64,000 nucleotides of DNA from an uncultured delta proteobacterium. Lineage in GTDB: Bacteria; Myxococcota; Myxococcia; Myxococcales; Myxococcaceae. The notes below the pieces were generated by a model that had not been told where the DNA came from, did not search any database, and was given only the letters and a program-made list of their open reading frames with translations. The position numbers were made by a program, and so were the translations under genes. The DNA lies in the NCBI GenBank assembly GCA_963796055.1, contig CAWCKH010000003.1, forward strand, positions 704,001 through 768,000. Reading direction: 5' to 3'. Of this stretch, positions 38,701-54,430 are shown piece by piece; the stretch's first letter is position 1, and each line of letters starts with the position of its first letter.

Positions 38701-39907
38701 TGGGGCGGGCGGGGCGGCGGCGACTACGGTCTCGGTGACCCCGAGCTTCTCGACGGTGACGGGAACAGCGGCCGCCTCCTGCTCCACGGCCTCCCCGGCC
38801 TCCTCGACCATCGCCGCCAACTCCACCGTGCCGTTCACCTTCACCTGTACACCCTGGGGGGCGGGAACCCTCACCTTCACCGCGACCGCGAACGGCACCG
38901 CAGCAAACACCGGCAACGCGCTCACCGCTGCGGCCACCACCTCGCCGGCGACGATCGTGCTCGCCCCGGTCGTCATCGCCCCCGCGACGGCAAGCGTTCC
39001 CCCGAGGGGAGTCCTGACCTTCATCGCCAGCGGCGGAAGTGGATCTGGCTTCACCTGGTCGCTGTCCACCAACGCCTCGGGCGGATCCGTCAACGCCAGC
39101 ACCGGCGCCTACACCGCCGGCGCGACGGGGAGTGTCACCGATGTGGTCCGGGTCGTCGACTCGCTCGGCAACGCCGCGACCCGCACCGTCGCGGTCGGAC
39201 CCGGAGTCTCCATCTCCGGAGTGACGGCGGTCGCCCCTCGCGGGTCGGCGACCTTCACCGCGAGCGGCGGCAGCGGCTCGGGCTACGCCTGGTCGCTGTC
39301 CACCAACGTCTCGGGCGGGTCCATCAATGCCAGCACCGGCGTCTACACCGCCGGCGCCACACCCAACGTCACCGACGTGGTCCGGGTCGTCGACTCGCTC
39401 GGCAACGGTGCCAACCAGAACGTGACGGTCGGGGCGGGCGTCTCCATCTCCGGAGTGACGGCGGTCGCCCCTCGCGGGTCGGCGACCTTCACCGCCAGCG
39501 GCGGCAGCGGCTCGGGCTACGCCTGGTCGCTGTCCACCAACGTGTCGGGCGGGTCCATCAATGCCAGCACCGGCGTCTACACCGCCGGCGCCACACCCAA
39601 CGTCACCGACGTGGTCCGGGTCGTCGACTCCCTCGGCAACGCGGCCACCCAGAACGTGGCGGTCGGGCCTGGCGTCTCGATCAGCGGTCCGGCCACGGTC
39701 CCGGTCTCAGGCTCGGCGACCTTCACCGCCAGCGGCGGCAGCGGCTCGGGCTACACCTGGGCGCTGTCCACCAACGCCTCGGGCGGGACCATCAATGCCA
39801 GCACCGGCGTCTACACGGCCGGCGCCACACCCAACGTCACCGACGTCGTGAGCGTCCAGGATTCCGTGGGGAATTCAGCCAGCGCCACCGTGTCGGTGAC
39901 CCCCTAG
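35786..39907 (+). CDS. Giant Ala/Thr/Ser-rich surface lipoprotein (1373 aa) with IPT/TIG and tandem Ig-like repeats
   Basis: Lipobox LVRC; SVSP..G..V.IQG.GF IPT start; many beta-sandwich repeats. Confidence 0.85.
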   Translation: MSTRSRLPLILAVVALVRCGDTELPSPAPTSVSPGRGFAGNATPVVIQGNGFSVRTVQSASGGAPTVDETFQAWMGDQALLDVHRVDQQTLTATVPAGLSPGVKTLRVQGPFGTSGELPNAFTVEGTALASISATIAAAPPTVSIGQVITVTATVTNTGTTSATGAAPTPPTVSGTGAADPSSGPDPASIATLGPGESETFTWTYSATGAGTLAFASSVHATDSFSGTTITAVTDPASPATVTVVRPAALTASLPSSGAAAFGREFTVMMTVNNTGGAAVKNLVPAVPTVAPSGLAALKAGTGPVPVSVDSLLPGASATFTWTFVAGNTPGKVQFSSSASGNDDNSGAPVASPVATSGDFTVGAAGLNASLSAAPATASVGQPLTLTLTATNPGLADVRNFAVSTPSVDSTDGANAALATGPTPAPPAVLAAGQTVNIAWTYDPALTPGLSSGHLAFGVIASGTDGFSGDPITAQPAASSTVQSPPTLVASLTAARTPPVPTGQPFTVNTGQAFTLSLAVSNTGGASAVAVTATPIAGCAAPSPASSTVTPGNPVVFLYASCSSAAAGTLTPSASASGMDANSPSTAVTSNPSSVTVVVQTPAAVTATVLATSPSTLSVGQAFTVTLTLTKTGTAAANVTGVSLTGTTCATGPAMPVNAIGATLNLTWSGCTAPATPQTLTLAGSVTWVDTNTGTVRTAGPVSASVPVVAAALVAATNITTTPATLSTGQTFSITLTLTKSGGAAANVTVATTSYSPPCLSPPAFPINNIAATQALVWSNCTAPSTAGALALAGSATWEDANVPGVFNTTNLTATSIVVQQAAALSASFAAQPPPTASVGQPLALTVAVSNTAGAGGATANNVTVTASVTGTLGATASCTGASPGASSIAGGASLPFTFTCTPLTTGTLTFTATVNGTAANSGTALTAAATTSPATTIQTPAALAVTFASQPPSPVNAGQVVSLTANVRNTAGAGGAAATTVSVTPSFSTVTGTAAASCSTASPASSTIAANSTVPFTFTCTPWGAGTLTFTATANGTAANTGNALTAAATTSPATIVLAPVVIAPATASVPPRGVLTFIASGGSGSGFTWSLSTNASGGSVNASTGAYTAGATGSVTDVVRVVDSLGNAATRTVAVGPGVSISGVTAVAPRGSATFTASGGSGSGYAWSLSTNVSGGSINASTGVYTAGATPNVTDVVRVVDSLGNGANQNVTVGAGVSISGVTAVAPRGSATFTASGGSGSGYAWSLSTNVSGGSINASTGVYTAGATPNVTDVVRVVDSLGNAATQNVAVGPGVSISGPATVPVSGSATFTASGGSGSGYTWALSTNASGGTINASTGVYTAGATPNVTDVVSVQDSVGNSASATVSVTP
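38970..39904 (+). repeat. Four intragenic tandem repeats, 234-bp (78-aa) period
   Basis: Unit starts at ~38972, 39206, 39440, 39674; units 2 and 3 nearly identical. A 360-bp duplicated module also lies at ~38250-38960. Confidence 0.92.
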
Positions 39908-40126: not shown

Positions 40127-40897
40127 ATGCCAAGAACGCTCGATCCGATGAGGGCGATCACCGGCGCCCTCCGAGGCCTGGAAGGCGCGATGCGCGCGCT
40201 GGTGGAGGAAAACACCCATCTCAGGAAGCAGGTGCTCCTCGACGGGCGGAGCGGGAGAGGTCGGATCGCCCGCGTTGGCCGGGCTGGTGATGGAGTGCCC
40301 CGCAAGCGGGGCCGTGCCTTCAAGTTCACCGATGATCAGGCGAACGAGTTCCGCAAGCAGGTCGAGGGTGGCAAGAGCGCCGCCTCCCTGGCCAAGGAGC
40401 TGAAGGTCTCGCTCCCCACCATGTACAACACCCTCAAGCGCGCAGGCTGGAAGCCGCGCACCGGGCGCGGGCGAGGATCCGCCGGCCGCACCGTCCGGGT
40501 GTCCGACGGGGTCCCGCGCAAGCGGGGGCGGGCCTTCAAGTTCACGGCCAATCAGGCGAGCGAGTTCCGCAAGCAGGTCGAGGGTGGCAAGAGCGCCGTC
40601 TCCCTGGCCAGGGAGCTGAAGGTCTCGCTCCCCACCATGTACAACACCCTCAAGCGCGCAGGCTGGAAGCCGCGCACCGGGCGCGGACGAAACCCCACCC
40701 GGCGCGCGGCCAGGATGCGCGACGGGGCTCCGCGCAAGCGCGGGCGGGCGTTCAAGTTCACCGTGGATCAGGCGGGCGAGTTCCGCAAACAGGTCGAGGG
40801 TGGCAAGAGCGCCGCCTCCATGGCCAAGGAGCTGAAGGTCTCGCTCCCCACCATGTACAACACCCTCCGGCGCGCAGGCTGGAAGGGCCGCAGGTAG
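40127..40897 (+). CDS. Basic DNA-binding protein: coiled coil plus three tandem RGR-HTH repeats
   Basis: Three copies of RKRGRAFKFT..QA.EFRKQVEGGKSA.S.A.ELKVSLPTMYNTL.RAGW with a 216-bp period (40319, 40535, 40751). Confidence 0.85.
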   Translation: MPRTLDPMRAITGALRGLEGAMRALVEENTHLRKQVLLDGRSGRGRIARVGRAGDGVPRKRGRAFKFTDDQANEFRKQVEGGKSAASLAKELKVSLPTMYNTLKRAGWKPRTGRGRGSAGRTVRVSDGVPRKRGRAFKFTANQASEFRKQVEGGKSAVSLARELKVSLPTMYNTLKRAGWKPRTGRGRNPTRRAARMRDGAPRKRGRAFKFTVDQAGEFRKQVEGGKSAASMAKELKVSLPTMYNTLRRAGWKGRR

Positions 40898-41036: not shown

Positions 41037-41387
41037 ATGCGGCGAAGAGCGTTGCTGATGCTACCTGCGGCGGCGTTCCTGGCAGCGACGACGTTCACCA
41101 CCACCACGCTCCACCCTCGCCGCTCCGAGGCAGCTCGAGACGAGATTTCACCGATTGCACCTTCACCACCGCGGTGGGCGAGAAGGACCTCCAGTGCGAA
41201 GGGCTCACCGAGACCTTTGGAGACGTCTCGGGAGATACCTTCATCCGCCTGTATTACGACTGCAGAGTTCCTTTCCTGCATCTCCACCTGCGGGTTTGTG
41301 GATGGGCAGTACGCCGGCTGCGATGGCTACCCCGGCGCGCACAAGGCAATGGGCTGCTCGACCGTGGGCTCGAACATGCCGAGGTAG
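41037..41387 (+). CDS. Small secreted Cys-rich protein, possibly frameshifted
   Basis: Signal-like MRRRALLMLPAAAFLA; Cys-rich segments split across two frames. Confidence 0.35.
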   Translation: MRRRALLMLPAAAFLAATTFTTTTLHPRRSEAARDEISPIAPSPPRWARRTSSAKGSPRPLETSREIPSSACITTAEFLSCISTCGFVDGQYAGCDGYPGAHKAMGCSTVGSNMPR

Positions 41388-43538
41388 CTCGCGGGCGCGC
41401 TCCGCTCGTCCTCCGGACCGGACAGAGGCGGAGGACTCTCCGCCAGCGCTTCCGGAGACTCCGAAGAGCGGGAGACGGGGGTCGAAGCCGCGACCCTCGC
41501 TTGGGAAGCGCATCCGCGGCGATTCCGCCGCTTCCACCGGTTCACACCCGTTGGGCCAGAGTCGTAGTTCCGAGGGCTTGGCCGAGGCGGAGGAGGCCGG
41601 GCCCCTTCCATCCGCTCCATCGATTCCACCGGTTCCGCTCCCGCTTGTTTCACCGCTTGCTTCAGGGGTCCGGGGGCAAACCACCGTGCGGACCCAGGGG
41701 ACCAGTCTGGACCCGAGCGAAGCCACCGCGCCCGTCACCGCCGGAGCCGCCTCCTCGGTCAGCATCTGCTTGATCTGCCGCTCCGCGAGCCTATGGATGC
41801 GGCGCATCCACCGCGAGGGCTCGAGCTTCAGCGAGGCCAGCTCCCTCGGCCGAACTACTTGCGGCTGACCGAGGAAGTCGACGTGGAGCTCCTCGGGTCG
41901 GACCGGGAGGCCAGGAGCCAGCGCCGACATCTTCTCCAGAAGGTGCCGCAGGCGATCGCGGCTGCCGAGGAGCTCGGCCCGGAGGCGGTCCAGGACCTCG
42001 CCCACGACTTCGGCCAGAACGTCACCGACCACCGCTCCGACGGGACTCTCGGCCGAGTCGGCCAACATCCGCGTGAGCTCGCCTGCCGCGCGATCGAGAG
42101 CACGAGGGGTGGCAGCCTCGAGCGCCTGGACCAGCGTGCCGCAGCGGCGCTCCGCCTCCCGGAGCACCTGCTCGGCATCCAGCGCGAGCTGCTCGAGTTC
42201 CTTCCGTCCGGCATCGCCGGAGGTGGTCGGGCCGCTGGTGATGACTGCGAGGCGGGCCTTCAACGTCGCCGCCACGCCCTGCTGGAGAGCCGCGAGCTTG
42301 CGCTCTGCCGACGTCCGGCTCAGGGTGGCCACCTGCGAGACGAGGGGGCCGACCTCCCGCTCGAACCAATCCTCGGCCAGCTGTCGCTCCGTGCCCACCG
42401 TGCTCACCAGACCGACCGGAATGTCGACGCCGAGGTGCGAGTGGAGCTGCCCGGCGAGGTAATCGCGGACACGCTCCCGATCCGAGCCCGACAGCAGGTC
42501 GACTTTGCTCAGGGCGACCTTGACCGGAATCCCCGATTCGTACAGCAGCCGGACGATGTCCAGGTCCTCCCGTCCCGGGGCGCTCGCCCCATCGACCAGG
42601 AGGACTCCAAGGTCGCACCTGGGGAGGTAGGCATAGGAGGCGCGGGCTCCGGAGGTGGCGAGCGAGCCGACGCCAGGAGTGTCGACCAGCGCGACGTCGC
42701 CCCGGAGTCGATGCGAAGGGACATGGGCCACCACCCGCACGACGCGCCTGGCATTGCCCGGGTTCCGCTGCTCCGAGACGTACTCCCCGAGCTGCTCGAG
42801 GCCCACCTCCATGGGCTCGCGCTCCGCGAGATGAATCTCCGCCTTCGGGACCTCGCCCAGGACGATCCGGGTGGGAACCGCGGTGACCGGGGTCACGCCC
42901 ACTGGCAGGACGTTCGTGCCGAGAACGGCGTTGAGAAGGGAAGACTTGCCCGAGCTGACCCGCCCGAACACCGCGATGTCGAACGTCTTTGTCTCGAGCC
43001 GCTCGAGGAGGGCCTCGAGCAATCCGCGGAACTCGACCAATCCCTGTTCGCGGATGACGCGCTCCAGAACCGCCACCCGCCGGACGTCAAACGGTACGCC
43101 CTCCAGGCGCTGCAGCCTGGTGCCGAGGTCCCGCCCGAGCCCCTCGACGATGTACGCGTGGAGCCGGCGGACGATCCGGTCAAGGGCGCGCTGGATCAAG
43201 CGCTGATCCTCCTCGCTCAGCAGGCCGTACCCTCGCAGGCGAGAGGGTGAGGTCTCCTCGATGGTGATCTCCGCGAAGGTCAGCGAGGTCTGGATCGCCC
43301 AGGTTGCCGTCACCCGGGGCTTCGCGAGCTGAAGCCCCAGCCCCTGGTATGCCTCGAGCAGTCGCTCGTGGAGGCGTTCCAGATAGTCGGCCACCACCTG
43401 CTGCTGCGCGGGCTGGAGGTCCGGAGAAATCTCCGAGAACGCGGACTGCCGGGACGAGGCCGCCCGCTCGACCTCCCGGATCAGGCGATCCAGCTGGACG
43501 AAGGTTGCGGTCAGCACGCGGCGGTGGTTGTCGTTCAA
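41241..43538 (-). CDS. Bacterial dynamin-like GTPase B (C-terminus probably truncated near 41680)
   Basis: G1 GRVSSGKS, G2 PVTAVP, G3 VDTPG, G4 SKVD; TTG start overlapping the upstream stop. The tail after ~41680 is low-complexity and reads through the att copy. Confidence 0.85.
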   Translation of the reverse strand: MNDNHRRVLTATFVQLDRLIREVERAASSRQSAFSEISPDLQPAQQQVVADYLERLHERLLEAYQGLGLQLAKPRVTATWAIQTSLTFAEITIEETSPSRLRGYGLLSEEDQRLIQRALDRIVRRLHAYIVEGLGRDLGTRLQRLEGVPFDVRRVAVLERVIREQGLVEFRGLLEALLERLETKTFDIAVFGRVSSGKSSLLNAVLGTNVLPVGVTPVTAVPTRIVLGEVPKAEIHLAEREPMEVGLEQLGEYVSEQRNPGNARRVVRVVAHVPSHRLRGDVALVDTPGVGSLATSGARASYAYLPRCDLGVLLVDGASAPGREDLDIVRLLYESGIPVKVALSKVDLLSGSDRERVRDYLAGQLHSHLGVDIPVGLVSTVGTERQLAEDWFEREVGPLVSQVATLSRTSAERKLAALQQGVAATLKARLAVITSGPTTSGDAGRKELEQLALDAEQVLREAERRCGTLVQALEAATPRALDRAAGELTRMLADSAESPVGAVVGDVLAEVVGEVLDRLRAELLGSRDRLRHLLEKMSALAPGLPVRPEELHVDFLGQPQVVRPRELASLKLEPSRWMRRIHRLAERQIKQMLTEEAAPAVTGAVASLGSRLVPWVRTVVCPRTPEASGETSGSGTGGIDGADGRGPASSASAKPSELRLWPNGCEPVEAAESPRMRFPSEGRGFDPRLPLFGVSGSAGGESSASVRSGGRAERARELPRHVRAHGRAAHCLVRAGVAIAAGVLPIHKPAGGDAGKELCSRNTGG
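41466..41507 (-). repeat. att-like repeat: degenerate 3' half of tRNA-Gly(CCC)
   Basis: Minus strand TTCCCAAGCGAGGGTCGCGGCTTCGACCCCCGTCTCCCGCTC; matches 55401-55443 with one substitution and one deletion. Confidence 0.85.
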
Positions 43539-44290
43539 CCTCCACCCCCGGAGGCACGCGAAGCGCTCGGCGTGAGGTACTGCCGCGCGACGGCGACCGC
43601 ACGCTCGGTCCGCAGCCGCTCGCCGCGGATCCGGCCCTCCCTCCACGACTGCGGATCCTCGAGTGCCTGAACGAGCACCGACAGGATGCCCGGCCGTCCA
43701 GCGGCGATCTCGAGCAACAGCGCCCGATCCTCCACCCCAGGAGCTCGAGGCAGGCGCGCAGCTTCGAGCCGCCTCTCGAGCAGCGCTCGCATCTGGCGCG
43801 ACCCGAGCGGCGGAACCGCAACTTCCAGATACGCAAGGCGAAGCGCCCGAACACCAGCGTGATCCCGTGCGTGCTCGACGTCCGCAGCGAGAGCGACTCC
43901 GAGCCCGGTACCTCGAAGCGAGCGCAGGTATCCCTTCAGCGCGGTCCCGGCAGCACGCACTCCGTCCAGGAGCAACGTTCCCCGCTGGCGCTCGACGGCG
44001 AGCCGAAGCAGGCCGCGCACGTGGGACTGCCGTCCCTGTGCACTCGTCGCGGGGTAGGCGCGGAGCAGGGCCTGGGTGACGTCGGAGAGGTGCTCCGTCC
44101 GGCGGGCGTACCCGCACGGACACCCGGACGCGAGGGCGCGTCGTCGGAGTTCGAGGAGCAGCGCGGTCTTTCCCACCCCCAGTGGTCCATGGAGCAGGAG
44201 CGTTTGCCCCTCCGCGACCTGCCGCTCCAGCGAGTCCAGCAGGGCCGCCCGGCCGAGAAGCCCGGCTGAATGCGTGCCCTCGCCCATCAC
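43535..44290 (-). CDS. P-loop (AAA+-like) ATP-binding protein
   Basis: LLGR, Walker A GPLGVGKT, Walker B LLLD, AAGRPG; coupled to both neighbours. Confidence 0.75.
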   Translation of the reverse strand: MMGEGTHSAGLLGRAALLDSLERQVAEGQTLLLHGPLGVGKTALLLELRRRALASGCPCGYARRTEHLSDVTQALLRAYPATSAQGRQSHVRGLLRLAVERQRGTLLLDGVRAAGTALKGYLRSLRGTGLGVALAADVEHARDHAGVRALRLAYLEVAVPPLGSRQMRALLERRLEAARLPRAPGVEDRALLLEIAAGRPGILSVLVQALEDPQSWREGRIRGERLRTERAVAVARQYLTPSASRASGGGG

Positions 44291-44769
44291 GGCCTCAAGG
44301 TCGCGGTCAGCCGCCGCGGCTCAAGCAGGAGGTCCAGTGCGTCGGTGACGCTGCCCACCACGACGTCCGCGGCGCGCAGAAGCTCAGACGAGAGCCCTTC
44401 CGGCCCGAGGACCGCGATCGCCAGCGTGGCCGAGCGCATCATCGGCACGTCGTTCCGTCCGTTCCCCACGGCCACGACACCACGCCGAGCATTGACGAAC
44501 AGGCCCTTCTCGGCTCCGGTCTCCACGGTGTGGACCCGCAGGGGCAGCCCGCGAAGCGCGGCCCTCGCGCTCCCGAAGGTGTCGGCGGTCAGGACGTGGA
44601 CCTCGAGCCGGCGCGAGAGCCGGACGAGTCGCTTCCGGAGGCCCGGCAGCAGCTCGCCGTCGCGCGCCAGGGTGCCGTTGAAGTCGAGGACGAGGTGCGA
44701 GAGGCGCAGTGGGGGCGCGAGCCCCAGCTCGACGGTGAGTGGCTCGACTCGATCGGCGGGCGGGACCAT
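44287..44769 (-). CDS. HAD-superfamily hydrolase ('soluble P-type ATPase'-like)
   Basis: LDFNGTLA (motif I), TADTFG, K, VGNGRND (motif IV). Confidence 0.85.
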   Translation of the reverse strand: MVPPADRVEPLTVELGLAPPLRLSHLVLDFNGTLARDGELLPGLRKRLVRLSRRLEVHVLTADTFGSARAALRGLPLRVHTVETGAEKGLFVNARRGVVAVGNGRNDVPMMRSATLAIAVLGPEGLSSELLRAADVVVGSVTDALDLLLEPRRLTATLRP

Positions 44770-44824
44770 GAACACTCCCGAGGGCTGCGAACTCCGGGGC
44801 CATCCCACCCGAAGCTCAGCAGCG

Positions 44825-45205
44825 TCACCCGACCTCCTCACCAGCCCTGAGCAGGAGCCTCCGGATTCCTCCCCTGGGCTCCGCGACGTCTCCCCAGCGC
44901 CGGGGGATGACGTGGAAGTGCAGATGGGAAACGGTCTGCCCCGCCGCCTCGCCGACATTGACCCCCACGGTGAACCCATCCGCCCGGTGGCGGTCCAAGA
45001 TGCTGGCCCGGACCGGAACGGTCGCCTCGGCAAGCGCTCCCCGCTCCGAGTCGGACGCGTCGAACCAGGTCAGGACGTGCCGCCGGGTGATGATCAGGGC
45101 GTGCCCCGGCGCGGCGGGATGCAGGTCCCAGAGCGCGAGGACCTCCGGTCCTTCCCAGAAGACCAGCCGCGGGTCGGGCGGACAGAATGGGCAGGAGGTG
45201 CTCAT
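44825..45205 (-). CDS. HIT-family nucleotide hydrolase
   Basis: [26 protein letters not shown]. Confidence 0.92.
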
Positions 45206-46500
45206 CGGTGCTGCGGGACCCTGGGGAACGCCCGCATCCCGATGTAGCGGGCGTGGGTTCCGAGCTCTCGCTCGATGCGGAGCAGCTGGTTGTACTTCGC
45301 GAGCCGCTCTCCCCGGCACGGCGCCCCGGTCTTGATCTGCTGGGCCCCAGTGGCCACCGCGAGGTCGGCGATGAAGTCGTCCGTCGTCTCTCCCGAGCGG
45401 TGGCTGACCACCAGCGACATCCCCGCCGAGCGAGCCACTTGCATCGTCTCCAGCGTCTCGCTCAGCGTGCCGATCTGGTTGGGCTTGATCAGCACCGAGT
45501 TGGTCACCTTCTCCTCGATGGCCCGCCGCACCCGTGTGACGTTGGTCACCAGGAGGTCGTCACCGACCAGCTGGATGCGCTCACCGAGCGCCCGGGTGAG
45601 GAGCTTCCATCCCTCCCAGTCGTCCTCGGCCAGGCCGTCCTCGATTGACCAGATCGGGAACTGGCGAACCCAGTTCTCGTAGAAGGCGACCATCTCCTCC
45701 GAGCTCCGGCGCCGCCCGTCCGACTTCCGGAACACGTAGGCGCTCCCATCGTGGAACTCGCTTGCCGCCGGGTCGAGCGCGATGCCCACGTCCTTTCCAG
45801 GCTTGTACCCGGCGCGGACGATCGACTCGAGCAGCAGCTCCACGGCCTCCTCGTTCGACTTGAGGTTGGGCGCGAACCCGCCCTCGTCGCCGACGTTGGT
45901 CCCGTACCCGCGCTGCTTCAGGAGCGCCTTCAGCGCCTGGTAGCACTCAACCGCGACCTGCATGGCGCTCTGGAAGCTGATCGCCCCGGCGGGAACGAGC
46001 ATGAACTCCTGGAGGTCGACGCTGTTGTCGGCGTGGACGCCCCCGTTGAGGACGTTCAGCAGCGGGACCGGGAGCACCTCGCCGGGCGGCTCGACGATGG
46101 CCCGGTAGAGCGGCAGCCCGCGGCTTGCGGCGTTGGCCCGGGCGACCGCGAGCGAGACGCCCAGGATGGCGTTGGCTCCAAGGCGGGACTTGTTCGGCGT
46201 TCCGTCCAGCGCCAGCAGCTTGGCGTCGACCTGTCGGAAGTCTGCCGGCGCACCCGCCAGCGCGGCGGAGATCTCTCCGTTGACGTGCCCCACCGCGAGG
46301 AGGACGCCCCGGCCGCCGTAGCGCTTCGGCTCGTGGGTGTCCCGCAGCTCGACGGCCTCGCCGCTGCCGGTGGAGGCGCCGGAAGGCACGCTCGCCCGCC
46401 CCAGGTGCCCGTCCCGCAGCTCGACGTCGACCTCCACCGTGGGATTCCCTCGGGAGTCGAGGATCTCCCGAGCGCAAACCCGTGCAATCTCCGCCGTCAT
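45202..46500 (-). CDS. eno: Enolase (accessory copy)
   Basis: [61 protein letters not shown]. Confidence 0.97.
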
Positions 46501-48278
46501 GTGACCTCCGATGCAGTCGGTGCGACGACGAGCAGTCCTGTTTGCCGGGTGAGCTCGTCGAGATGCTCCAGCTCCGTTCTGACCTGACCTGCTCCCAGCG
46601 CCTGGGCCCGGCGCGCCTCCTCCACCGCATCGCGGGAACGAGCACGCACGACGCCCAGCTTCCGGCGCAGCTCTTCCCTGAGCAGCCGGGCGCTCTCCTC
46701 GGCTCTCTCCGCGAGATCGAACTGGACGCGCGAGCTGTTGGCCTCGAGGAGGCGAAGGAAGTAGTGCCGCGCATGGCGCAGGATCGACCCCCGGCGCCAA
46801 GAGACGGGGAAGAGCTGGTCGAGGACCCACGACCACGGTGGCTCCCCGGTCAGCTGCATCAGGGAGGCGAAGCGCCTCTGGCTGGGGACCCGGAATCCGA
46901 GGTCGAGGTCCATGTCGGCCAGGCCCGGGGCCTCGAGCGCCCTGGCGGCACGGCCGAGGAATTCGCTCGCGATGCGGGTCAGTCGCTCGGATGCGGCCCG
47001 GTGTAGCTCCTCGGCCCGAGATCCCTCCTCGCGCAGCCAACCCTCGGTGACTTCCCGGGCGGTGCTCTCGGCCAGGTCGAGACTCTGCGCGCGGACGGCA
47101 TGGGGACGGCCGCCCAGGCCCGCGATTCGGCCCTGTAGCGCGGAGACACCTGCCGGCGCAGCGCTGGCCAGGAACTCCTGCCGCTGCTCCTCCAGCGCCG
47201 AGCGGAGCCGTTCCACCTCGACGCGGAAGGCGACGTCGAGCAACCGGAGCGACTGCTCCAGCCCATCCACCGCCGCGAGGAGCGCCTTCATCCGCCGCTC
47301 CGATTCCTCGAGCGGAACAGTGAGCGCCAGCCTGCGCTCCTCGAGCACCCCCAAAAGCTCACCCCGCAGTCGCATCAGGCCGCGCCAGGCGGCCCCCGAG
47401 GCCAGCCGGGTGCCCTCGTTGGCCGAGAGCTCCTCCAGGGCCGTCACCAGAGCTTTCCAGTCGCGTCCTCCGCTGCCGCCAGCGAGACGCTCCTGGGCGC
47501 TGACCTCGAAGTGGCGCGAACCATCGGGCACTCCGGCCTCGATGAGCACCGAGGTGGTGAAGGTCCGGGCCTCCTCGAGCGCGGCCGTGTCCATCCGATC
47601 CGCCTTGTTGAGGACGAAGAGGAAATGCTCCACGCGCCGGGACAGCTCGATGACCAGCTCGAGCTCGCGTGCCGCGATGGGAGGATCCCCTCCCAGGACG
47701 ATGAGGGCAGCGTCCACCTGCGGCAGGAAGGCGAGCGTGGTCCGGGTGTTCTCCAGGTAGGTGGACTCGATTCCTGGGGTATCGACCAGGCACATCCCGT
47801 GCGCGAGGATGGGAGCTGGAAGGAGCACCTCTGCCGCATCCAGCCGCTTGCGGTTGCGGGGGTTCTGCTCCTCGGTCACGTACGCGGCGAGCTCGGCGCG
47901 CGGAATCTCCTCCCAGTCGCCGCCGCCCACGCGGATCCGGATGGTCTCGCGCGGTCCATGCCGAACGACGACGGCCGCCGAGGTCATCGGCCGGACCCCC
48001 ACTGGGAGCACCGGGGTTCCGAGAAGCGCGTTGATGAGCGTCGACTTCCCTCGTTTGAACTGACCCAGGCAGGCCACGAAATACCGGCCGGCCACGGTGC
48101 GCTCGCGAAGCCGGTCCGCCTCGTCGGCGAGGTCGGCCATGCGGGCCCGCCGGCCCAGCGCAGAGAGCTGGGACAGGGAGGCAGCCACCTCCGGTTCCCC
48201 CGTCTGTTCCACCAGTGCAGTCATCGTCCGCTCCAGGACCGGAACAAGGGTGTCCTGAAGACGTCGAGCGGTGCCCAT
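46497..48278 (-). CDS. Bacterial dynamin-like GTPase A
   Basis: G1 [22 protein letters not shown]; helical C-terminus; GAGGAG RBS. Confidence 0.9.
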
Positions 48279-48329
48279 CGCGGTCTCCTCGTGGCGTCAC
48301 GCATGCCCCGCGGACGCGTCGTTGCGTTC

Positions 48330-48379
48330 GCAGGAGTCATTGGCTCGCTCCGAGCAGTTCCGGCGGACTCCACCGCCTC
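48330..48379 (-). promoter_or_regulatory. Fluoride riboswitch (crcB motif) before the dynamin-enolase operon
   Basis: GAGGCGGTGGAGTCCGCC-GGAACTGC...GCCAATGACTCCTG: P1 GGCGG/CCGCC and pseudoknot GGAGT/ACTCC. Confidence 0.85.
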
Positions 48380-48497
48380 TGTGTCAACCTTTACATCTAC
48401 GCAGTCGAGGCTGACTTCTCAAGGGGTGAGAGCAGCCCTGGGTGGACCGATGGGCCTGGCGGAGCGGCGTCGGTCCCGGTACGGTTGGTGACCAGTC

Positions 48498-48558
48498 GAG
48501 GCGGTGGAGTCCGCCATGAACCGCCGGTCGGCGTGTCCGAGCGGCCAATGACTCCTGT
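48498..48558 (+). promoter_or_regulatory. Fluoride riboswitch (crcB motif) before the antiporter operon
   Basis: GAGGCGGTGGAGTCCGCCATGAACCGCC...GGCCAATGACTCCTG, with the same P1 and pseudoknot. Confidence 0.88.
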
Positions 48559-48606
48559 GAGCGTGGGGAGACCGCAACGGTTCCCCCGGTTTCACGGGAG
48601 GCGTCC

Positions 48607-48687
48607 ATGGCCAAGGTCCTCGAGAAGCGCAAGGCACCCACGGAAGTCAACCGCTGGCTTTCCGCACGTCGCGGTGTCTGGCCGTGA
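48607..48687 (+). CDS. 26-aa leader ORF MAKVLEKRKAPTEVNRWLSARRGVWP
   Basis: GGGAGG RBS; its TGA overlaps the antiporter GTG (GTGA). Confidence 0.55.
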   Translation: MAKVLEKRKAPTEVNRWLSARRGVWP

Positions 48688-49886
48688 CTCAGGTCTGGAC
48701 GCTCGCCGCACTATGGCTCGGGCTGGCGCTGCTGGCCACTCTGCTCTCCATCTGGTTCCGGGTGGCGACGGCCCTGTCGGAGATCGTCGTGGGCACGGTC
48801 GCCCAGTTGGTCATCGGAGCGCTGATCGGCGGTGCGGTGCTCGGAACGGACCAGGGCTGGATCAAGTTCCTCTCCGGCACCGGGGCCATCGTCCTCACCT
48901 TCCTCGCCGGCGCAGAGCTCGATCCGGTGGTGTTCCGAGCGCGCTGGAAAGAGGCCACGCTGATCGGGGCGGTCGGGTTCTTCGCACCGTTCCTCGGCTG
49001 CGCGTTCATCGCCCACTGGGTGCTGCACTGGGGTTGGAGGCCCAGCTGGCTCGCCGGTGTCGCTCTGTCCACGACCTCGGTGGCGGTGGTCTATGCGGTG
49101 ATGCTCGAGCTCGGCCTGAACAAGACCACCTTCGGGAAGGCGGTCCTCGCGGCCTGCTTTGTCAACGACCTGGGCACGGTCATCGCCCTGGGGTTGATCT
49201 TCGCTCCGTTCGGCTCCCGGACCCTGGCCTTCGTGGGAGTGGGCATCGCGGTCTTTGCCGTGCTCCCCTGGCTCACCCCGCGCTTCTTTCGCCGCTACGG
49301 TGGGAGACCCTCCGAGCTGGAGGCGAAGTATCTCCTGTTCCTGCTGTTCGCACTGGGAGCCCTCGCGTCCTGGGCCGACAGCGAGGCCGTCCTTCCCGCC
49401 TACGTCGTGGGGATGGTCCTGGCCGGAACGGTGGGAAAGGACCACGTGCTGGTCGCCCGTCTCCGGACCCTGACCTTCGGACTGCTCACTCCGTTCTACT
49501 TCATCCGCGCCGGGTCGTTCGTCTCGGTCCCGGCGCTGCTCGCCGCCCCGCTGGTCTTCCTCGTGCTCTTCCTGGCGAAGATGGTGACCAAGACCGTCGG
49601 GGTGTTTCCGGCCACCAAGGCGGTCGGCTACCCCCGGCTGGAGGCGCGTTACACCACCCTGCTCATGTCCACCGGTCTGACGTTCGGGAGCATCTCCGCC
49701 CTTTTCGGCCTCAATCACGGCATCATCGACCAGGCCCAGTACTCGCACCTGGTGGCGACGGTCATCATGAGCGCGGTCGCCCCGACGGTCATCGCCAATG
49801 CCTTCTTCCTCCCTAGACATCTACTCCCGAGCGCTCCACCGGCGGGCCTCGTCGCGGCTGGGCCGGCGAAGCAGGCGGAGCTCTGA
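48684..49886 (+). CDS. Cation:proton antiporter (Na+/H+ exchanger/CPA family)
   Basis: About 12 TM helices; FLAGAELD, LSTTSVAVV, FVNDLG, PFYF. Confidence 0.88.
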   Translation: MTQVWTLAALWLGLALLATLLSIWFRVATALSEIVVGTVAQLVIGALIGGAVLGTDQGWIKFLSGTGAIVLTFLAGAELDPVVFRARWKEATLIGAVGFFAPFLGCAFIAHWVLHWGWRPSWLAGVALSTTSVAVVYAVMLELGLNKTTFGKAVLAACFVNDLGTVIALGLIFAPFGSRTLAFVGVGIAVFAVLPWLTPRFFRRYGGRPSELEAKYLLFLLFALGALASWADSEAVLPAYVVGMVLAGTVGKDHVLVARLRTLTFGLLTPFYFIRAGSFVSVPALLAAPLVFLVLFLAKMVTKTVGVFPATKAVGYPRLEARYTTLLMSTGLTFGSISALFGLNHGIIDQAQYSHLVATVIMSAVAPTVIANAFFLPRHLLPSAPPAGLVAAGPAKQAEL

Positions 49887-49915
49887 GATGGTGGAATGAG
49901 GAGCAGGAGGAAACC

Positions 49916-51208
49916 ATGGCGCTCGAGGGTCGAGGGAAGCGGGTGCGCATCTACGTGAACGAGGGTGCCCGGGTCGGCCACCAGTCGGCAGACATCGCGA
50001 TCCTCACCTTCCTTCGTCGCGAGAACGCGGCCGGAGCCACCGTCTTCCGCGCCATCGAGGGCTTCGGCGGGCACGGCGAGATCCACACCGCGCGCCTGGT
50101 GGACGTGGCCCAGGCGCTGCCGATGGTCATCGAGTGGGTCGACTCGGAGGAGCGCGTCGAGCGCCTGCTGCCCCGGGTCAAGGAGCTCGTCCCGCGCGGG
50201 CTCATCACCGTCGATCCGACCGAGATCGTCCTTTACGAGCCCTATCCTGTTCGCCGCGTCTCGAGTCATCTGACCGCCGCCAACGTCATGTCCCACGACG
50301 TCACCGCCGTCGGGCCCCAGGTGCCGGTTCGCCAGGTCGTGGAGCTGCTTCTCGGGCGGGTCTACCGGGCCGTTCCCGTCATCGACGGAACGGTTCCGGT
50401 CGGGATCATCAGCAACTCCGACCTGGTCACCCGCGGAGGCCTCACCGTCCGGATGGAGCTGTTACCCAGCCTCGAGGGCCCCGAGCTCCACGACGTGCTC
50501 GAGCGGCTCGCCAGGCAACAGAAGACCGCCGGCGAGATCATGACCCCGCACCCGGTGACCGTGCTCGCCACGACGCCACTCCCAGAGGTCGCGCAGATCA
50601 TGGCTCGGCGCCATCTCAAGCGGCTGCCGGTGGTGGGCCCAGGGGGTGGGCTGGTCGGGATCGTCAGTCGTCTCGATCTGCTCCGCACGGTCGCCGAGGG
50701 CTTCTCGCGAAACCAGCCCGAGCCCGACCAGGTCGGGCTGAACGGCGACGCGCCGATCGGGAAGGTGATGCGTCGCGACGTCCCGACCGTCTTCCCGGAG
50801 ACCTCGGTCCCGGAGGTGATGCAGGCCGTGTTCTCCACCCGGCTGAATCGCGCGGTGGTGGTGGATGCCGAGCGCCATGTCCTGGGCCTGGTCACGGACG
50901 CCGAGCTCCTGGAACGGGTCACCCCGTCGTTGAAGCCGAGCGCGCTCCAGTCACTGATGCACCGCCTGCCGCTCCTTCCTCGGCGTCAGGATGCCCGAGG
51001 AGTCGAGCAGCACGCGCTCGCCCATACTGCCCGGGAGCTGATGGTGCGGGCAATCCCGACTGCGGAGGAGAGCACCCCGCTCCGCCAGGCGCTCCGCTCC
51101 ATGCTCGAAGGCAAGGAGAAGCTCATTGCAGTCGTCGACGGTCAGCGCAAGCTGGTGGGCGTCGTCGACCGCGCGGACATTCTCCGGGGTCTGGCGGCGC
51201 CCGGATAG
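49916..51208 (+). CDS. DUF190 (PII-like) domain fused to four CBS domains
   Basis: AGATVFRAIEGFG, LPMVIEWVD (DUF190); four CBS repeats (VMSHDV, IMTPHP, VMRRDV, LMVRAI). Confidence 0.88.
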   Translation: MALEGRGKRVRIYVNEGARVGHQSADIAILTFLRRENAAGATVFRAIEGFGGHGEIHTARLVDVAQALPMVIEWVDSEERVERLLPRVKELVPRGLITVDPTEIVLYEPYPVRRVSSHLTAANVMSHDVTAVGPQVPVRQVVELLLGRVYRAVPVIDGTVPVGIISNSDLVTRGGLTVRMELLPSLEGPELHDVLERLARQQKTAGEIMTPHPVTVLATTPLPEVAQIMARRHLKRLPVVGPGGGLVGIVSRLDLLRTVAEGFSRNQPEPDQVGLNGDAPIGKVMRRDVPTVFPETSVPEVMQAVFSTRLNRAVVVDAERHVLGLVTDAELLERVTPSLKPSALQSLMHRLPLLPRRQDARGVEQHALAHTARELMVRAIPTAEESTPLRQALRSMLEGKEKLIAVVDGQRKLVGVVDRADILRGLAAPG

Positions 51209-51217
51209 GAGAGACCC

Positions 51218-51643
51218 ATGTTCTCCAGGATCCTCGTGGGGGTCGACGGCTCGTCCCCGAGTCAGCGCGCCTTCGCGGTCGCGCTCGACCTGGCAAAGCA
51301 CTACCGCGCCCCGCTCCACGTCTGCTCGGTCATCGAAGACGTGCCTAAATATGACGGCGAGTCGATCGCCGACGTCGACGAGGCGGTGGAGCGAGCGCAG
51401 AAGGCGTTCGATCGGGTCTACGAATCACTCGCCGGGGAGGCCAAGCGCGAGAAGGTCAAGCTCGTCCGCCACGTGATGCCCGGTCACCCAGTGGAGGTCC
51501 TCGTACACCTGGCCGAGCAGGAGGGCATCGAGTGCATCGTCCTCGGGGGGCTGGGCCACTCGCGCGTCCTGCGACGGGCTGCCGGGGGGATGGGAACGCA
51601 GGTCGCTTACCACGCACACTGCTCCGTGCTCATCGTGCGCTGA
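51218..51643 (+). CDS. Universal stress protein
   Basis: ILVGVDGS, GHP, IVLG..G, AHCSVLIVR. Confidence 0.92.
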   Translation: MFSRILVGVDGSSPSQRAFAVALDLAKHYRAPLHVCSVIEDVPKYDGESIADVDEAVERAQKAFDRVYESLAGEAKREKVKLVRHVMPGHPVEVLVHLAEQEGIECIVLGGLGHSRVLRRAAGGMGTQVAYHAHCSVLIVR

Positions 51644-51820: not shown

Positions 51821-52264
51821 CTACTGGAGGACGGCCCGCATGGCGACGGCGCTCCTGGGGCACGCTCCATGCAGCTCCTCGGAGGCGTTCAGGACCTCCG
51901 GTAACTCCTCGCGTCGAGCCACGGTGAAGCCGAACCGAGGAAACCAGTCGGGCGCAGTGGTCGTCAGGAGAAAGACGTCGCGGACGCCACCTTCGCGAGC
52001 CCGCTCCAGGAGCGCTCGGACCAGAGCGGTTCCGAGCCCGTTGCCCGCCAAGTTGTCGGCGACTGCCACCGACCGGAGCAGCCCAACGTTCCCGTAGCGC
52101 TCGAGTCCGGCAACTCCGAGCACCGCCCCGTTCGTCTCGCTCGTTGCCACGATGAAATCCGGGAGATGAATGTCCGCGCCCTCGGTCGGCAGATGACGTG
52201 CCTCAAGCAACGCCCGGATCCTGGGCCAGTCGCTCGCGCGTGCCAGGCGGATGGACGGGGTCAC
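51821..52264 (-). CDS. arsN2: Arsenic-resistance GNAT acetyltransferase (ArsN2-like)
   Basis: LLRSVAV, GNGLGTALV, LLTTTA..WF.RFGF, CPRSA; located in the ars operon. Confidence 0.8.
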   Translation of the reverse strand: MTPSIRLARASDWPRIRALLEARHLPTEGADIHLPDFIVATSETNGAVLGVAGLERYGNVGLLRSVAVADNLAGNGLGTALVRALLERAREGGVRDVFLLTTTAPDWFPRFGFTVARREELPEVLNASEELHGACPRSAVAMRAVLQ

Positions 52265-52782
52265 GCGGCAGAGTCCGGGGACTTCAGTCGCTCGAGGCCG
52301 ATGTCCTTCGTCAGCTTCTCCACCTTGAGCCTTTCGAGCTGCTCAAGAGGGAGCGAGGTGAAGATCTGCAAGCGCCGGTACAGGGTGAGAGCGACGCTGT
52401 GGAAGAAGCGTTCCTTTTCGCTCTCGGACCCAACGAAGGCAGCCGGGTCGTCCACGCCCCAATGCGCCACGATCGGCTGTCCCGGCCAGACAGGGCACGT
52501 CTCGCGTGCGTTGTCGCAGACGGTGATCACGAAGTCGAAGTTGGTCCTCCGGAATTCGTCCCACGACTTGCTGCGAGCATCGCTTGCGTCGATCGCAAAA
52601 CGTTCACGGAGCACCTTCACCGCAAGCGGATTCACGACGCCGGTTGGCATGGCCCCGGCGCTGTAGGACTCGAATCGCGCTCCTCCAAGCCGCTTCAGGA
52701 AGTACTCGGCGAAGACGCTCCGGGCCGAGTTGCCGGTGCAGAGGAAGAGCACCCGAAATGGACGACGCTGGTCGGTCTTCAT
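52261..52782 (-). CDS. arsC: Arsenate reductase (LMW-PTPase/thioredoxin type)
   Basis: LFLCTGNSARS, ITVCDNARETCPVWPG, HWGVDDP. Confidence 0.92.
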   Translation of the reverse strand: MKTDQRRPFRVLFLCTGNSARSVFAEYFLKRLGGARFESYSAGAMPTGVVNPLAVKVLRERFAIDASDARSKSWDEFRRTNFDFVITVCDNARETCPVWPGQPIVAHWGVDDPAAFVGSESEKERFFHSVALTLYRRLQIFTSLPLEQLERLKVEKLTKDIGLERLKSPDSAA

Positions 52783-52807
52783 GCGACGGCTCCTGGGGTA
52801 CCGAGGG

Positions 52808-53959
52808 TCAGGAAACGCTGGCGGTCGGGTCGCCAGCACCGCTGCTCTGATCGCCGCCGACGCGGCGCGGGAGGACCGGGGCACCCGAGCCCCGAAAGAG
52901 ACGTTTCTTGAGCCAGAGCGACAGGTACACGAGCGCGATCAGCGCGGGCACCTCGATGAGCGGCCCGACCACGCCGGCGAGAGCCTCGCCGGAGGAGATT
53001 CCAAACACACCGACGGCCACCGCGATGGCCAGCTCGAAGTTGTTGCCGGCGGCGGTGAACGAGAGGCTCGCGGTTTCCTCGTAGGTGAAGCCAAGACGCC
53101 GCGCGAGGAAGAAGGCACTCGTGAACATCACCCCGAAGTAGACCAAGAGCGGGATCGCGATCCGCACCACATCGACCGGCAAGCGCGTGATCTTGTCTCC
53201 CTGCATCGCGAACATGAGGACGATGGTGTAGAGCAGGCCGACCAGCGCGGTGGGGCCGAGGCGCGGCAGGAATTTCTCCTCGTACCAGGCTGACCCCTTC
53301 AGCCTGACCAGGGAGTAGCGCGTGAACGCACCGGCCACGAGGGGGACGCCGAGGAAGATCAGCACGCTCTTGGCGATGGCCCACACCGAGACGTCGAACG
53401 AGCTACCTGACTGCCCGAGCCAGCCGGGCACGACGGTGATGAAGAGCCATCCGAGGAAGGAGTAGCAGAGGATCTGAAACAGCGAGTTGAGGGCGACCAG
53501 CACCGCCGCGAGCTCATTGCTGCCACGGGCGAGCATGTTCCAGATCAGCACCATCGCGATGCAGCGGGCCAGGCCGATGAGGACGAGCCCGGTGCGGTAG
53601 TGCGGCAGGTCGGGCAGGAACACCCAGGCCAGCGCGAACATCAGCACGGGTCCGGCGATCCAGTTCAGGACCAGGGAGGTCGCGAAGAGCTTCCCGCGCG
53701 TCCGCAGCCCATGGACCTCGCCGTAACGCACTTTCGCGAGCACCGGATACATCATCCAGAGCAGGCCGACCGCGATCGGCAACGAAACGGTGTCGAGCTT
53801 CACCGAGTCCAGCCGCGCCCCGAGATCCGGAAACAGACGGCCGAGCAGGAGCCCGAGCGCCATGGCTCCCCCGATCCAGACCGGAAGGAGGCGGTCAACG
53901 ACCGAGAGGCGCTGGATGACGCGAGGAGCAGCGGGCTGCGCGATAGCAGTCGCGGTCAT
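52808..53959 (-). CDS. acr3: ACR3-family arsenite efflux transporter
   Basis: MMYPVLAKV, LARCIAMV, GNNFELAIAVA, GPLIEVP. Confidence 0.95.
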   Translation of the reverse strand: MTATAIAQPAAPRVIQRLSVVDRLLPVWIGGAMALGLLLGRLFPDLGARLDSVKLDTVSLPIAVGLLWMMYPVLAKVRYGEVHGLRTRGKLFATSLVLNWIAGPVLMFALAWVFLPDLPHYRTGLVLIGLARCIAMVLIWNMLARGSNELAAVLVALNSLFQILCYSFLGWLFITVVPGWLGQSGSSFDVSVWAIAKSVLIFLGVPLVAGAFTRYSLVRLKGSAWYEEKFLPRLGPTALVGLLYTIVLMFAMQGDKITRLPVDVVRIAIPLLVYFGVMFTSAFFLARRLGFTYEETASLSFTAAGNNFELAIAVAVGVFGISSGEALAGVVGPLIEVPALIALVYLSLWLKKRLFRGSGAPVLPRRVGGDQSSGAGDPTASVS

Positions 53960-53971
53960 CGGGTCGAACCC

Positions 53972-54430
53972 TCAGCCGCCGCAGCCTGCCGTGCCGCGCA
54001 CTATCGCGGGGGTGCAGCAAGCTGCCGATTGAGCACCCTGGCCCTCCGCCGGCGCCTCCCCGTACGTCGTGCTCTCTCCGGTCGTGAGGAACGTCTCCCA
54101 CGAGACTCCCGAGGGATCCAGCACCCATGCCTTCTCGGACTTCGCGTAGCAGCAGGTGGTCGCACCCTCGTCGAAAAGGGCCCTGCCCGCGGCCTGGAGT
54201 CGGTGAGCCACCTGGCTCAACTCCGCTTTCTCCTCGACCTGGATCCCGAGATGGTCAATCCCGGCCGCGCGACCCCGTGCAGAGATGGCGAAGTTGACGC
54301 GTGGGTCGTCGAGCATCCACTTCGCGTAATCGGGCTTGAGCACCGTGGGCGCTGTCGCGAAGAGCGCCGAGTAGAACTCCACAGACTGCTCGACGTTTTC
54401 AACGGCGACGTGTACGTGCAGACGCTTCAC
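53972..54430 (-). CDS. ArsI/CadI-family glyoxalase-like metalloenzyme
   Basis: RLHVHV, YAKWMLDDP..NFAIS, HLGIQV, TCCYAKSEKAW..DP, C-terminal CC. Confidence 0.9.
   Translation of the reverse strand: MKRLHVHVAVENVEQSVEFYSALFATAPTVLKPDYAKWMLDDPRVNFAISARGRAAGIDHLGIQVEEKAELSQVAHRLQAAGRALFDEGATTCCYAKSEKAWVLDPSGVSWETFLTTGESTTYGEAPAEGQGAQSAACCTPAIVRGTAGCGG

Follow-up and report, generated by a model that had tools for sequence, protein, structure and literature searches.

Why would a bacterium place the genes of two dynamin-like proteins (DLPs) behind fluoride riboswitches, in a locus that holds no gene for a fluoride exporter? The question is raised by a stretch of 64,000 nucleotides, hereafter the window, from an uncultured member of the Myxococcaceae (GenBank assembly GCA_963796055.1, contig CAWCKH010000003.1, positions 704,001 to 768,000 of the forward strand). 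Two predicted fluoride riboswitches of the crcB motif lie within it and point away from one another. The left riboswitch precedes an operon composed of DLP-A, a second enolase gene (eno), genes for a HIT-family protein, a small HAD-like protein and a minimal AAA+ ATPase, and finally DLP-B; the right one precedes a short leader open reading frame (ORF) and genes for a cation/proton antiporter (CPA), a DUF190 protein fused to CBS domains and a universal stress protein (USP). The fluoride response has so far been understood as export together with back-up enzymes. A conserved dynamin/AAA+ module under riboswitch control would imply that fluoride also has a target at the membrane, or that the defence against it has a part there. 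Comparison of gene neighbourhoods across genomes and metagenomes leads, with confidence, to the assignment of the DLP/AAA+ module to the fluoride regulon.

The first step towards an answer concerns the RNAs themselves. Both are confidently assigned, on sequence and covariation, to the genuine fluoride riboswitch class, and fluoride binding is predicted for both. Each spans positions 1-64 of the 64 positions of the Rfam fluoride model RF01734 and scores above its gathering score of 34 (Table 1). This bears out the sequence-only reading of this DNA, which had recognised two outward-facing crcB-motif aptamers and had proposed a covariance-model search with the Rfam fluoride model as a check. Its description of the aptamers as near-identical holds for P1 and both pseudoknot strands, which are identical, but not for P3, which differs. 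The aptamers are separated by a spacer of 104 nt (48387-48490) and sit in sense-strand 5' leaders, 45 nt from the ATG of DLP-A and 42 nt from that of the leader ORF. They are the sole Rfam matches in the window and the only RF01734 matches in the whole assembly (5.53 Mb, 98.5% complete). In a structural alignment of 15 Myxococcales aptamers (the window pair and 13 from related loci), standard pairs fill 97.1% of the cells of the P1/P3/pseudoknot structure. The six pseudoknot pairs are paired in 100% of cases, with compensatory changes in three, and six pairs of the structure as a whole change on both sides. The observed covariation was reached by none of 500 column shuffles, and pairing fell to 30-52% in a control in which the pairing partners were slid.

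Is the dynamin link a peculiarity of one genome? Comparison with relatives indicates that the link is real and conserved well beyond it. In a sample of 301 genomes of the order, 12 encode a DLP-A homologue (E ≤ 1e-20). RF01734 was searched in 11 of these 12, with G243 left out, and lies upstream of the DLP operon on the same strand in ten; the eleventh, G279, is without a riboswitch. The layouts of the relatives, obtained by homology mapping, vary in what accompanies the DLP gene. Riboswitch, crcB, DLP and eno follow one another in G213, in G233 and in a second locus of G161; in G018 the order is riboswitch, crcB, DUF190 and DLP, and in G004 it is riboswitch, PP2C, CLC/CBS, DUF190, crcB, DLP, eno and AAA. 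The riboswitch is followed directly by DLP and eno in G143 and G161, and by a DLP at the contig end in G187. Divergent twin riboswitches recur in G252, where one leads a DLP-B-like gene and the other the genes for a DUF6062 protein, CPA, USP, DLP-A and enolase. The loci with crcB between riboswitch and DLP are L026, L029, L031, L032 and L033. In a 151-genome sample of the order, RF01734 scored above its cut-off in 13 genomes, and all five DLP-positive genomes are among these; if this sample lies within the 301, as the handle numbers suggest, a DLP occurs in none of the 138 genomes without an above-cut-off match. The genomes of the order sample are related, and such counts overstate their independence.

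The link extends to more distant relatives. The DLP-A family is large and composed of proteins of about 575 residues, with 1688 of 8000 scored candidates matching at E ≤ 1e-10. Eighty metagenomic loci were chosen via an alignment of 88 sequences, each holding a DLP-A relative 35-49% identical to that of the window and at most 3 kb of flank. A riboswitch scan gave 48 matches in 39 of the 80. The riboswitch lies upstream on the DLP strand in 29 loci (within 400 nt in 14 of these), just downstream of the DLP in ten and divergently upstream in five. A model rebuilt from the 48 matches (R2) detected no further riboswitches in these loci, and a spot check with the Rfam model confirmed eight of ten positive loci and none of ten negative ones. 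The figure of 39 is a lower bound, as in many riboswitch-negative loci crcB lies at the very edge of the fetched flank. Neighbouring genes were sought by tblastn with the window proteins (E ≤ 1e-6); within 3 kb of the DLP gene, crcB was found in 26 loci, DUF190 in 39, CPA in 17 (42-86% identical to the antiporter of the window), enolase in 15 and USP in 11. A riboswitch or crcB/DUF190 is present within 3 kb in 61 of the 80 loci and some marker in 65. One locus, L121, mirrors the twin divergent layout of the window, with one riboswitch leading to CPA, USP and DUF190/CBS and the other to DLP and eno. A recurrent order, seen in L045, L050, L073, L075, L087, L092, L100, L102, L106, L109, L120 and others, is crcB, an unknown 200-residue gene without a Pfam family, three tandem DUF190 genes, an AAA_16 ATPase and the DLP. 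By profile search the AAA+ partner occurs in 35 of the 80 DLP loci, seven of which were in the profile alignment and match by construction, and in 24 loci it is the immediate upstream neighbour of the DLP, on the same strand.

Several of the loci in the order carry features of their own. L025 (G161:C54:31146-45130) contains six RF01734 matches in 14 kb, three of them above the cut-off, and one sub-threshold copy (31.1 bits) adjoins a 41-residue enolase fragment between a HAD-like gene and eno; together, riboswitch and fragment look like the scar of a rearrangement. The first gene behind the riboswitch encodes a 475-residue protein with a DUF6062 region in L027 (7409-8836, plus strand) and a PP2C phosphatase in L033 (12791-13669, minus strand), which adds two more members to the fluoride islands.

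What kind of proteins are the partners of this link? DLP-A models as a dynamin of the IniA/BDLP class with intact GTPase motifs. The G1 (G72-S79), G3 (D166-G169) and G4 (K225, D227) motifs are invariant in the 88 sequences, and in the AlphaFold 2 (AF2) model, with a predicted local distance difference test (pLDDT) score of 87.4, long helices at 274-581 come after the G domain. The best Foldseek matches, obtained with the DLP-A model only, are IniA (6j72, E 7.7e-18), BDLP (2j69), the Cj-DLP1/2 pair, SynDLP and mitofusins, and those to IniA and BDLP extend over the full length. A candidate membrane loop at residues 449-482 (pLDDT 59-68) holds Trp and Phe residues. Both DLPs clear the Dynamin_N Pfam cut-off of 27 bits, and the translation of DLP-B shows a P-loop, DTPG and SKVD. 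The minimal AAA+ ATPase yields an AF2 model of pLDDT 91.1 with a base-and-lid fold, nearest to ORC/Cdc6, MuB, TnsC and clamp-loader subunits; this likeness points to no specific function for the partner. The Walker B region of the AAA+ family contains one invariant Asp only, D109.

DLP-B differs from DLP-A in carrying an N-terminal helical domain of 175 residues, for which neither a Pfam family nor a usable ESM Atlas match was found. Regions that resemble only the first 105-159 residues of DLP-B occur in metagenomic loci (L063:6713-7162, L093:75-392, L097:783-1265, L104:774-1178 and L107:931-1341), adjoining riboswitch, AAA+, crcB and DLP genes, and ORFs of 151-198 residues cover those of L097, L104 and L107. 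Because such stand-alone regions exist, DLP-B has the look of a dynamin to which this domain has been fused. The unknown 200-residue gene that stands between crcB and the DUF190 triplet was compared as a possible relative of the domain, and no relation was found. A search for longer fused relatives of DLP-A returned none at E ≤ 1e-30, which is weak evidence. At its other end, DLP-B had been given an end at 41680 by the sequence-only reading, where there is no stop codon; the frame continues to 41241. Residues 1-620 are 75% identical to a 678-residue orthologue in G161, and it is around 41,670-41,700 that this homology dies away, as does the codon-position GC signal. The last 150 or so codons may form a divergent tail of low complexity, or else result from a frameshift that went unnoticed.

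If the DLPs belong to a fluoride regulon, where is the exporter? None of the ten operon genes downstream of either window aptamer is a CRCB or CLC gene by Pfam, and the claim that a canonical fluoride exporter is lacking holds for the window; it does not extend to the genome, which has crcB on another contig. This gene, at G000:C4:358581-358919 (CRCB 92.4 and 92.9 bits in two scans), overlaps with its start the end of an M64 peptidase gene and is followed by a stand-alone DUF190 gene. No riboswitch was found at this unlinked crcB-DUF190 pair even at E ≤ 1. Three CLC genes are also present outside the window, 27-31% identical to the riboswitch-linked CLC of G004. The stronger claim of a complete fluoride-stress regulon built without Fluc/CLC-F does not survive these observations, as the genome carries crcB-DUF190 and as the riboswitch drives crcB-DLP-eno or crcB-DUF190-DLP in relatives. 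Since crcB is unlinked here and driven together with the DLP by the riboswitch in relatives, the window contains the accessory genes of a fluoride island, and the exporter gene of that island lies elsewhere. Fluoride export in this genome appears to be constitutive or otherwise regulated.

The enolase of the left operon gives a second view of the island. The genome encodes two enolases that are 57.7% identical to one another, and the operon copy, at 600.8 bits, passes the TIGR01060 equivalog threshold of 300 bits. Each of five relatives likewise possesses a housekeeping enolase plus one or more linked copies. In an unrooted maximum-likelihood tree of 24 sequences, from which the L035 copy was omitted on account of an internal stop, the six housekeeping and 18 DLP-linked copies are split with 100/100 support. 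Because of this split, the operon enolase is confidently placed, as judged from the tree, in a separate lineage of long standing, which accompanies the island as a dedicated paralogue. Many positions are invariant among 19 linked enolases and include what we take, from enolase numbering, to be the catalytic residues. Seven columns separate linked from housekeeping copies (e.g. F versus Y after DEGG) and give no mechanistic hint. In G213, a metagenome-assembled genome that is 72% complete, DLP and enolase share a single open frame of 1025 codons (L029:7313-10390, minus strand), which is either a natural fusion or the result of a lost stop codon; as a single case it is treated as a curiosity. 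As the two genes adjoin in many loci and share this frame in G213, a complex of DLP-A (residues 30-593) and the operon enolase was predicted, and the result (score 0.13, mark 0.32) gave no answer. The reading frames of two linked enolases are interrupted, that of G004 (L033:6777-8038, minus strand) being split across two frames and that of G243 (L035:1288-2556, minus strand) having the internal stop; both are either sequencing errors or decaying copies.

How might the switches act on the genes behind them? On the right, a UCACGGGAG stretch that includes the Shine-Dalgarno sequence pairs with CUCCUGUGA of the aptamer 3' strand in the minimum-free-energy fold. The complement is contiguous over 9 nt, which is equalled in six of 200 shuffles, and withholding the pseudoknot strands lifts the unpaired probability of the Shine-Dalgarno from 0.09 to 0.38. 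The 4-base stop/start overlap then joins the leader ORF to the CPA gene. Leader ORFs of 26-30 codons with the same 4-nt overlap are found in five of 15 riboswitch-CPA pairs (the window, G102, G161, G143 and L121). The peptide sequence is not conserved among these five, and riboswitch-CPA loci of lower GC content have short leaders with U-tracts instead of a leader ORF. The right-hand pattern fits control of leader translation coupled to the antiporter. On the left, the Shine-Dalgarno opens from 0.17 to 0.59 with the aptamer withheld. No terminator-like sites were found in 48250-48700, and a sigma-70 promoter scan of the 450-nt control region gave no match, where none would be expected by chance. 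Among the relatives, G143 and G187 clearly use terminators, with a 10-nt complement followed by a U-tract.

On balance, and with a little more confidence than doubt, the whole is best explained by twin fluoride ON switches in front of divergent operons, a membrane role for the DLP/AAA+ module, and export by the unlinked crcB-DUF190 pair. By this account the two operons hold all the fluoride genes of the genome that a riboswitch controls. Fluoride binding would take up the aptamer 3' strand in the pseudoknot. On the right, this would free the Shine-Dalgarno otherwise paired with that strand, so that the leader ORF would be translated and CPA would follow via the stop/start overlap, and then DUF190-CBS and USP. 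On the left, where the case is less certain, the same logic would most likely free the ribosome site of DLP-A, and the coupled genes as far as DLP-B would then be translated. The enolase may replace or supplement the fluoride-inhibited housekeeping enzyme, and the antiporter may counter the acid load that results from entry of HF. The AAA+/DLP module would most likely be a GTP-consuming system by which the cytoplasmic membrane is repaired or remodelled during fluoride stress, a role proposed because the DLPs have the IniA/BDLP fold. Fluoride export would be left to the crcB-DUF190 pair, which has no riboswitch.

A number of points weigh against this explanation. All of the evidence is computational, being composed of sequence and predicted structure. 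Our confidence in a membrane-maintenance role for the DLPs is no more than moderate, the likeness to the IniA/BDLP fold being the one ground for this proposal, and the candidate membrane loop is modelled with low confidence. For the right Shine-Dalgarno, the unpaired probability climbs just from 0.09 to 0.14 if the aptamer is withheld as a whole. On the left, no complement to the 3' pseudoknot strand exceeds 7 nt, a length that is equalled or beaten in 49 of 200 shuffles, and the leader fold, with a z-score of -1.35, is no better than that of shuffled sequence. A downstream complement matched by at most nine of 200 shuffles occurs in just six of the 15 aptamers. Within the 151-genome sample, eight of the 13 riboswitch-positive genomes have no DLP-A homologue, which makes the DLP an optional member of the regulon. 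Among the 80 metagenomic loci, 15 have no fluoride marker at all within 3 kb, and the riboswitch scan of these loci used a covariance model that was built in this analysis from the 15 Myxococcales aptamers. Finally, the HIT gene was found, among the relatives examined, in the same genus only.

Other explanations of the dynamin genes have to be set beside this one. The DLP/AAA+ module might serve the exporter, acting alongside DUF190 proteins in the insertion, assembly, clustering or regulation of Fluc (CrcB), and the gene orders lend this idea some appeal: crcB is directly upstream of the DLP in L026, L029, L032 and L033, with DUF190 between the two in L031, and the 26 loci with crcB and 39 with DUF190 among the 80 often show the order crcB, unknown gene, three DUF190, AAA+ and DLP. 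In this genome, however, crcB-DUF190 is unlinked and without a riboswitch, whereas the DLPs are riboswitch-controlled, and in many loci the DLP stands directly behind the riboswitch with crcB out of reach. We also know of no dynamin that acts on a channel, which counts against a service to the exporter, and such a service is considered unlikely. A different proposal is compensation of the kind suggested for enolase, in which fluoride traps the GTPase and more of the sensitive enzyme is made. Complexes of magnesium or aluminium fluoride with GDP are standard transition-state mimics for dynamin-family G domains, which speaks for such trapping, and fluoride is mentioned in papers on BDLP and mitofusins. 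The riboswitch regulon also includes extra copies of fluoride-inhibited enzymes, as described in parts of PMC5533749. Set against this, there is no constitutive DLP copy to back up. The genome scan with Dynamin_N returned the two operon DLPs at 86.3 and 84.9 bits and four further matches at 21-25 bits; as the DLPs are the sole strong matches, the logic of an extra copy of an inhibited enzyme, which fits enolase, does not fit them. Furthermore, a DLP-A homologue is absent from 289 of the 301 sampled genomes, which indicates that the DLPs do not perform a housekeeping activity. Compensation is judged improbable.

Fluoride could also act on the DLP in the opposite sense, with GDP-magnesium-fluoride locking a G-domain dimer and so switching on membrane tethering or sealing; fluoride would then act on the protein in addition to the RNA. 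The intact G1-G4 motifs, the dynamin class and an expression strictly coupled to fluoride sensing may be read in favour of such direct activation, but intracellular levels of fluoride and Mg2+ may not suffice and the same chemistry would equally predict inhibition; direct activation is likewise judged improbable. The least probable explanation, to which we attach very little weight, is that the DLP genes are hitch-hikers, present in the operon by chance or through the history of a mobile island and without a role in fluoride. The island is indeed patchy (12 of 301 genomes), and its accessory HIT and HAD-like genes vary. Nevertheless, of 80 independent metagenomic loci at 35-49% protein identity, 61 retain the linkage, as do ten of 11 genomes from several families; gene orders vary, and the riboswitch stays upstream. 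Returning to the favoured explanation of a membrane role under fluoride control, a further proposal can be made tentatively, and with more doubt than belief: that AAA+ and dynamin form a dedicated third arm of the response, next to export (Fluc, CLC-F) and enzyme replacement (enolase, pyrophosphatase). This arm would be a fluoride-induced, GTP-driven machine that reshapes the cytoplasmic membrane or keeps it tight during an influx of HF/F-, maybe one triggered as a GDP-magnesium-fluoride-locked G-domain dimer. If this were true, bacterial dynamins would gain a defined and cheap chemical inducer.

The features of both operons and of the region between them are collected in Table 1. A Pfam scan matched the gene orders that had been read from the sequence, namely DLP-A, eno, HIT, HAD, ATPase and DLP-B on the left, with HAD and ATPase below their cut-offs, and leader ORF, CPA, DUF190-CBS and USP on the right; the leader ORF, which had been placed at 48608-48688, is given in the table at its corrected range, 48607-48687.

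Table 1. Positions of the riboswitches, expression platforms and operon genes within the window
Feature	Position	Strand	Remarks
Left fluoride riboswitch aptamer (crcB motif)	48324..48386	-	RF01734 42.2 bits, full model; helices and pseudoknot supported by covariation
Left expression platform (linker)	48279..48323	-	Shine-Dalgarno GAGGAG at 48285-48290, 6 nt before the DLP-A ATG
DLP-A, dynamin-like GTPase, 593 residues	46497..48278	-	Dynamin_N 82.7 bits
Second enolase, 432 residues	45202..46500	-	TIGR01060 600.8 bits
HIT-family nucleotide hydrolase/transferase, 126 residues	44825..45205	-	Pfam HIT 79.3 bits
Small HAD-like protein, about 160 residues	44287..44769	-	Weak matches only; start uncertain, 44769-44841
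Minimal AAA+ (AAA_16/STAND-like) ATPase	43535..44290	-	AAA_16 25.5 bits, under cut-off
DLP-B, second dynamin-like GTPase	41241..43538	-	Dynamin_N 81.1 bits; frame open to 41241
Right fluoride riboswitch aptamer	48491..48564	+	RF01734 39.0 bits, full model
Right expression platform	48565..48606	+	Hairpin, then UCACGGGAG stretch including Shine-Dalgarno
Leader ORF, 26 codons	48607..48687	+	Stop overlaps CPA start (GTGA)
Cation/proton antiporter (CPA), 400 residues	48684..49886	+	Na_H_Exchanger 129.7 bits; GTG start
DUF190 fused to four CBS domains, 430 residues	49916..51208	+	DUF190 109 bits; CBS 147.8 bits in four stretches
Universal stress protein (USP), 141 residues	51218..51643	+	Usp 95 bits

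Within the left operon, 4-base stop/start overlaps couple DLP-A to eno, eno to HIT, HAD to AAA and AAA to DLP-B. The HAD-like protein (Hydrolase_3 17.2 bits, below the cut-off; P-type ATPase models about 20 bits) resembles the soluble domain of P-type ATPases and has homologues in L025 and L049. Fhit-type HIT proteins act on adenosine 5'-phosphorofluoridate, and these Fhit-type proteins are reported to be able to form compounds of this kind by fluorolysis, the former according to parts of PMC4613722 and the latter according to a reference cited there. Such chemistry might be the reason for a HIT gene in a fluoride island, which is speculative.

On the right, no Pfam family was found for the leader peptide. 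The antiporter scores 110.8 bits against the CPA2 model TIGR00932, below its cut-off of 238.3, and its assignment stands at the level of the Pfam family only. The riboswitch-linked antiporters of L047, L056, L063, L069, L088, L098 and L121 are 71-76% identical to that of the window, and the DLPs of the same loci 37-44%. Since the conservation of the antiporter far exceeds that of the DLP, these identities suggest a specialised transporter under tight constraint. Immediately beyond the USP gene, Pfam matches outline an arsenic-resistance-like cluster (51821-54430, minus strand) that contains a GNAT acetyltransferase, a low-molecular-weight phosphatase/ArsC-like protein, an ACR3-type SBF transporter and a glyoxalase-fold protein, so that two anion/metalloid stress loci lie side by side. 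Beyond the left operon, 40127-40897 (plus strand) encodes a 256-residue protein of three near-identical repeats of about 75 residues, each with a helix-turn-helix (HTH) supported by many weak HTH Pfam matches, and 35786-39907 (plus strand) encodes a highly repetitive Thr/Ala/Ser-rich protein of 1373 residues with a signal-like N-terminus, which is probably a surface protein.

What, then, does this locus add? It places a DLP operon under the riboswitch even where crcB has left, it identifies a minimal AAA+ ATPase as the regular partner of the DLP, and it contains an antiporter that is predicted to be gated through a riboswitch-controlled leader ORF. Bacterial DLPs have poorly defined roles for want of known triggers; in this locus the leader RNA names the trigger, which makes the function directly testable.

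Among characterised dynamins, the best structural match to DLP-A is mycobacterial IniA (6j72), which with IniC likewise forms a stress-induced DLP pair in one operon. The ini operon of mycobacteria is induced by drug stress. IniA/IniC differ from the window proteins in sequence (17% identity) and in inducer and regulation, and the window has an AAA+ partner and no IniB-like gene. Nostoc punctiforme BDLP (2j69) and Campylobacter Cj-DLP1/2 (5owv) share with DLP-A a G domain and a helical neck/trunk, and with the window a two-gene DLP pair, at 13-16% identity to DLP-A. To our knowledge these proteins have no known inducer or physiological trigger, whereas that of the window DLPs is indicated by the riboswitch. 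Bacillus subtilis DynA (NF052648), which acts in protection against membrane stress and phage, also shares the dynamin G domain and a proposed role in membrane protection. It is, however, a single fused double dynamin of 1187 positions, whereas the window DLPs are separate. Membership of DLP-A and DLP-B in this family was considered and rejected, as only their G domains match (42.9 and 48.2 bits against a cut-off of 1600).

Known fluoride regulons are closer to the window in regulation. PMC2864571 (Weinberg 2010) describes the crcB motif and the variety of genes that go with it, and PMC12700350 makes general statements on antiporters and riboswitches. One example, the E. cloacae FRM operon ppaC-uspA-eno-gpmA-crcB, is fluoride-induced and supported by knock-out evidence in PMC5533749; it agrees with the sequence-only reading that this riboswitch is classically accompanied by genes for enolase, antiporters, HAD-like proteins and USP. 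That reading had also known of no characterised link between dynamins and fluoride, and here too no paper making such a link was found: a literature search on fluoride, riboswitch or crcB with dynamin or GTPase returned none, the gene lists of Baker et al. 2012, which could bear on priority, lying outside it. The window shares with known fluoride riboswitch regulons the same aptamer, a predicted ON-switch logic, the enolase, the USP, the antiporter and small HAD/P-type-ATPase-like companions. It differs from them in that the exporter gene lies outside riboswitch control, in its two divergent aptamers, in a right-hand switch that is predicted to act via a coupled leader ORF and in dynamin-like lead genes with an AAA+ partner, a combination found in no paper.

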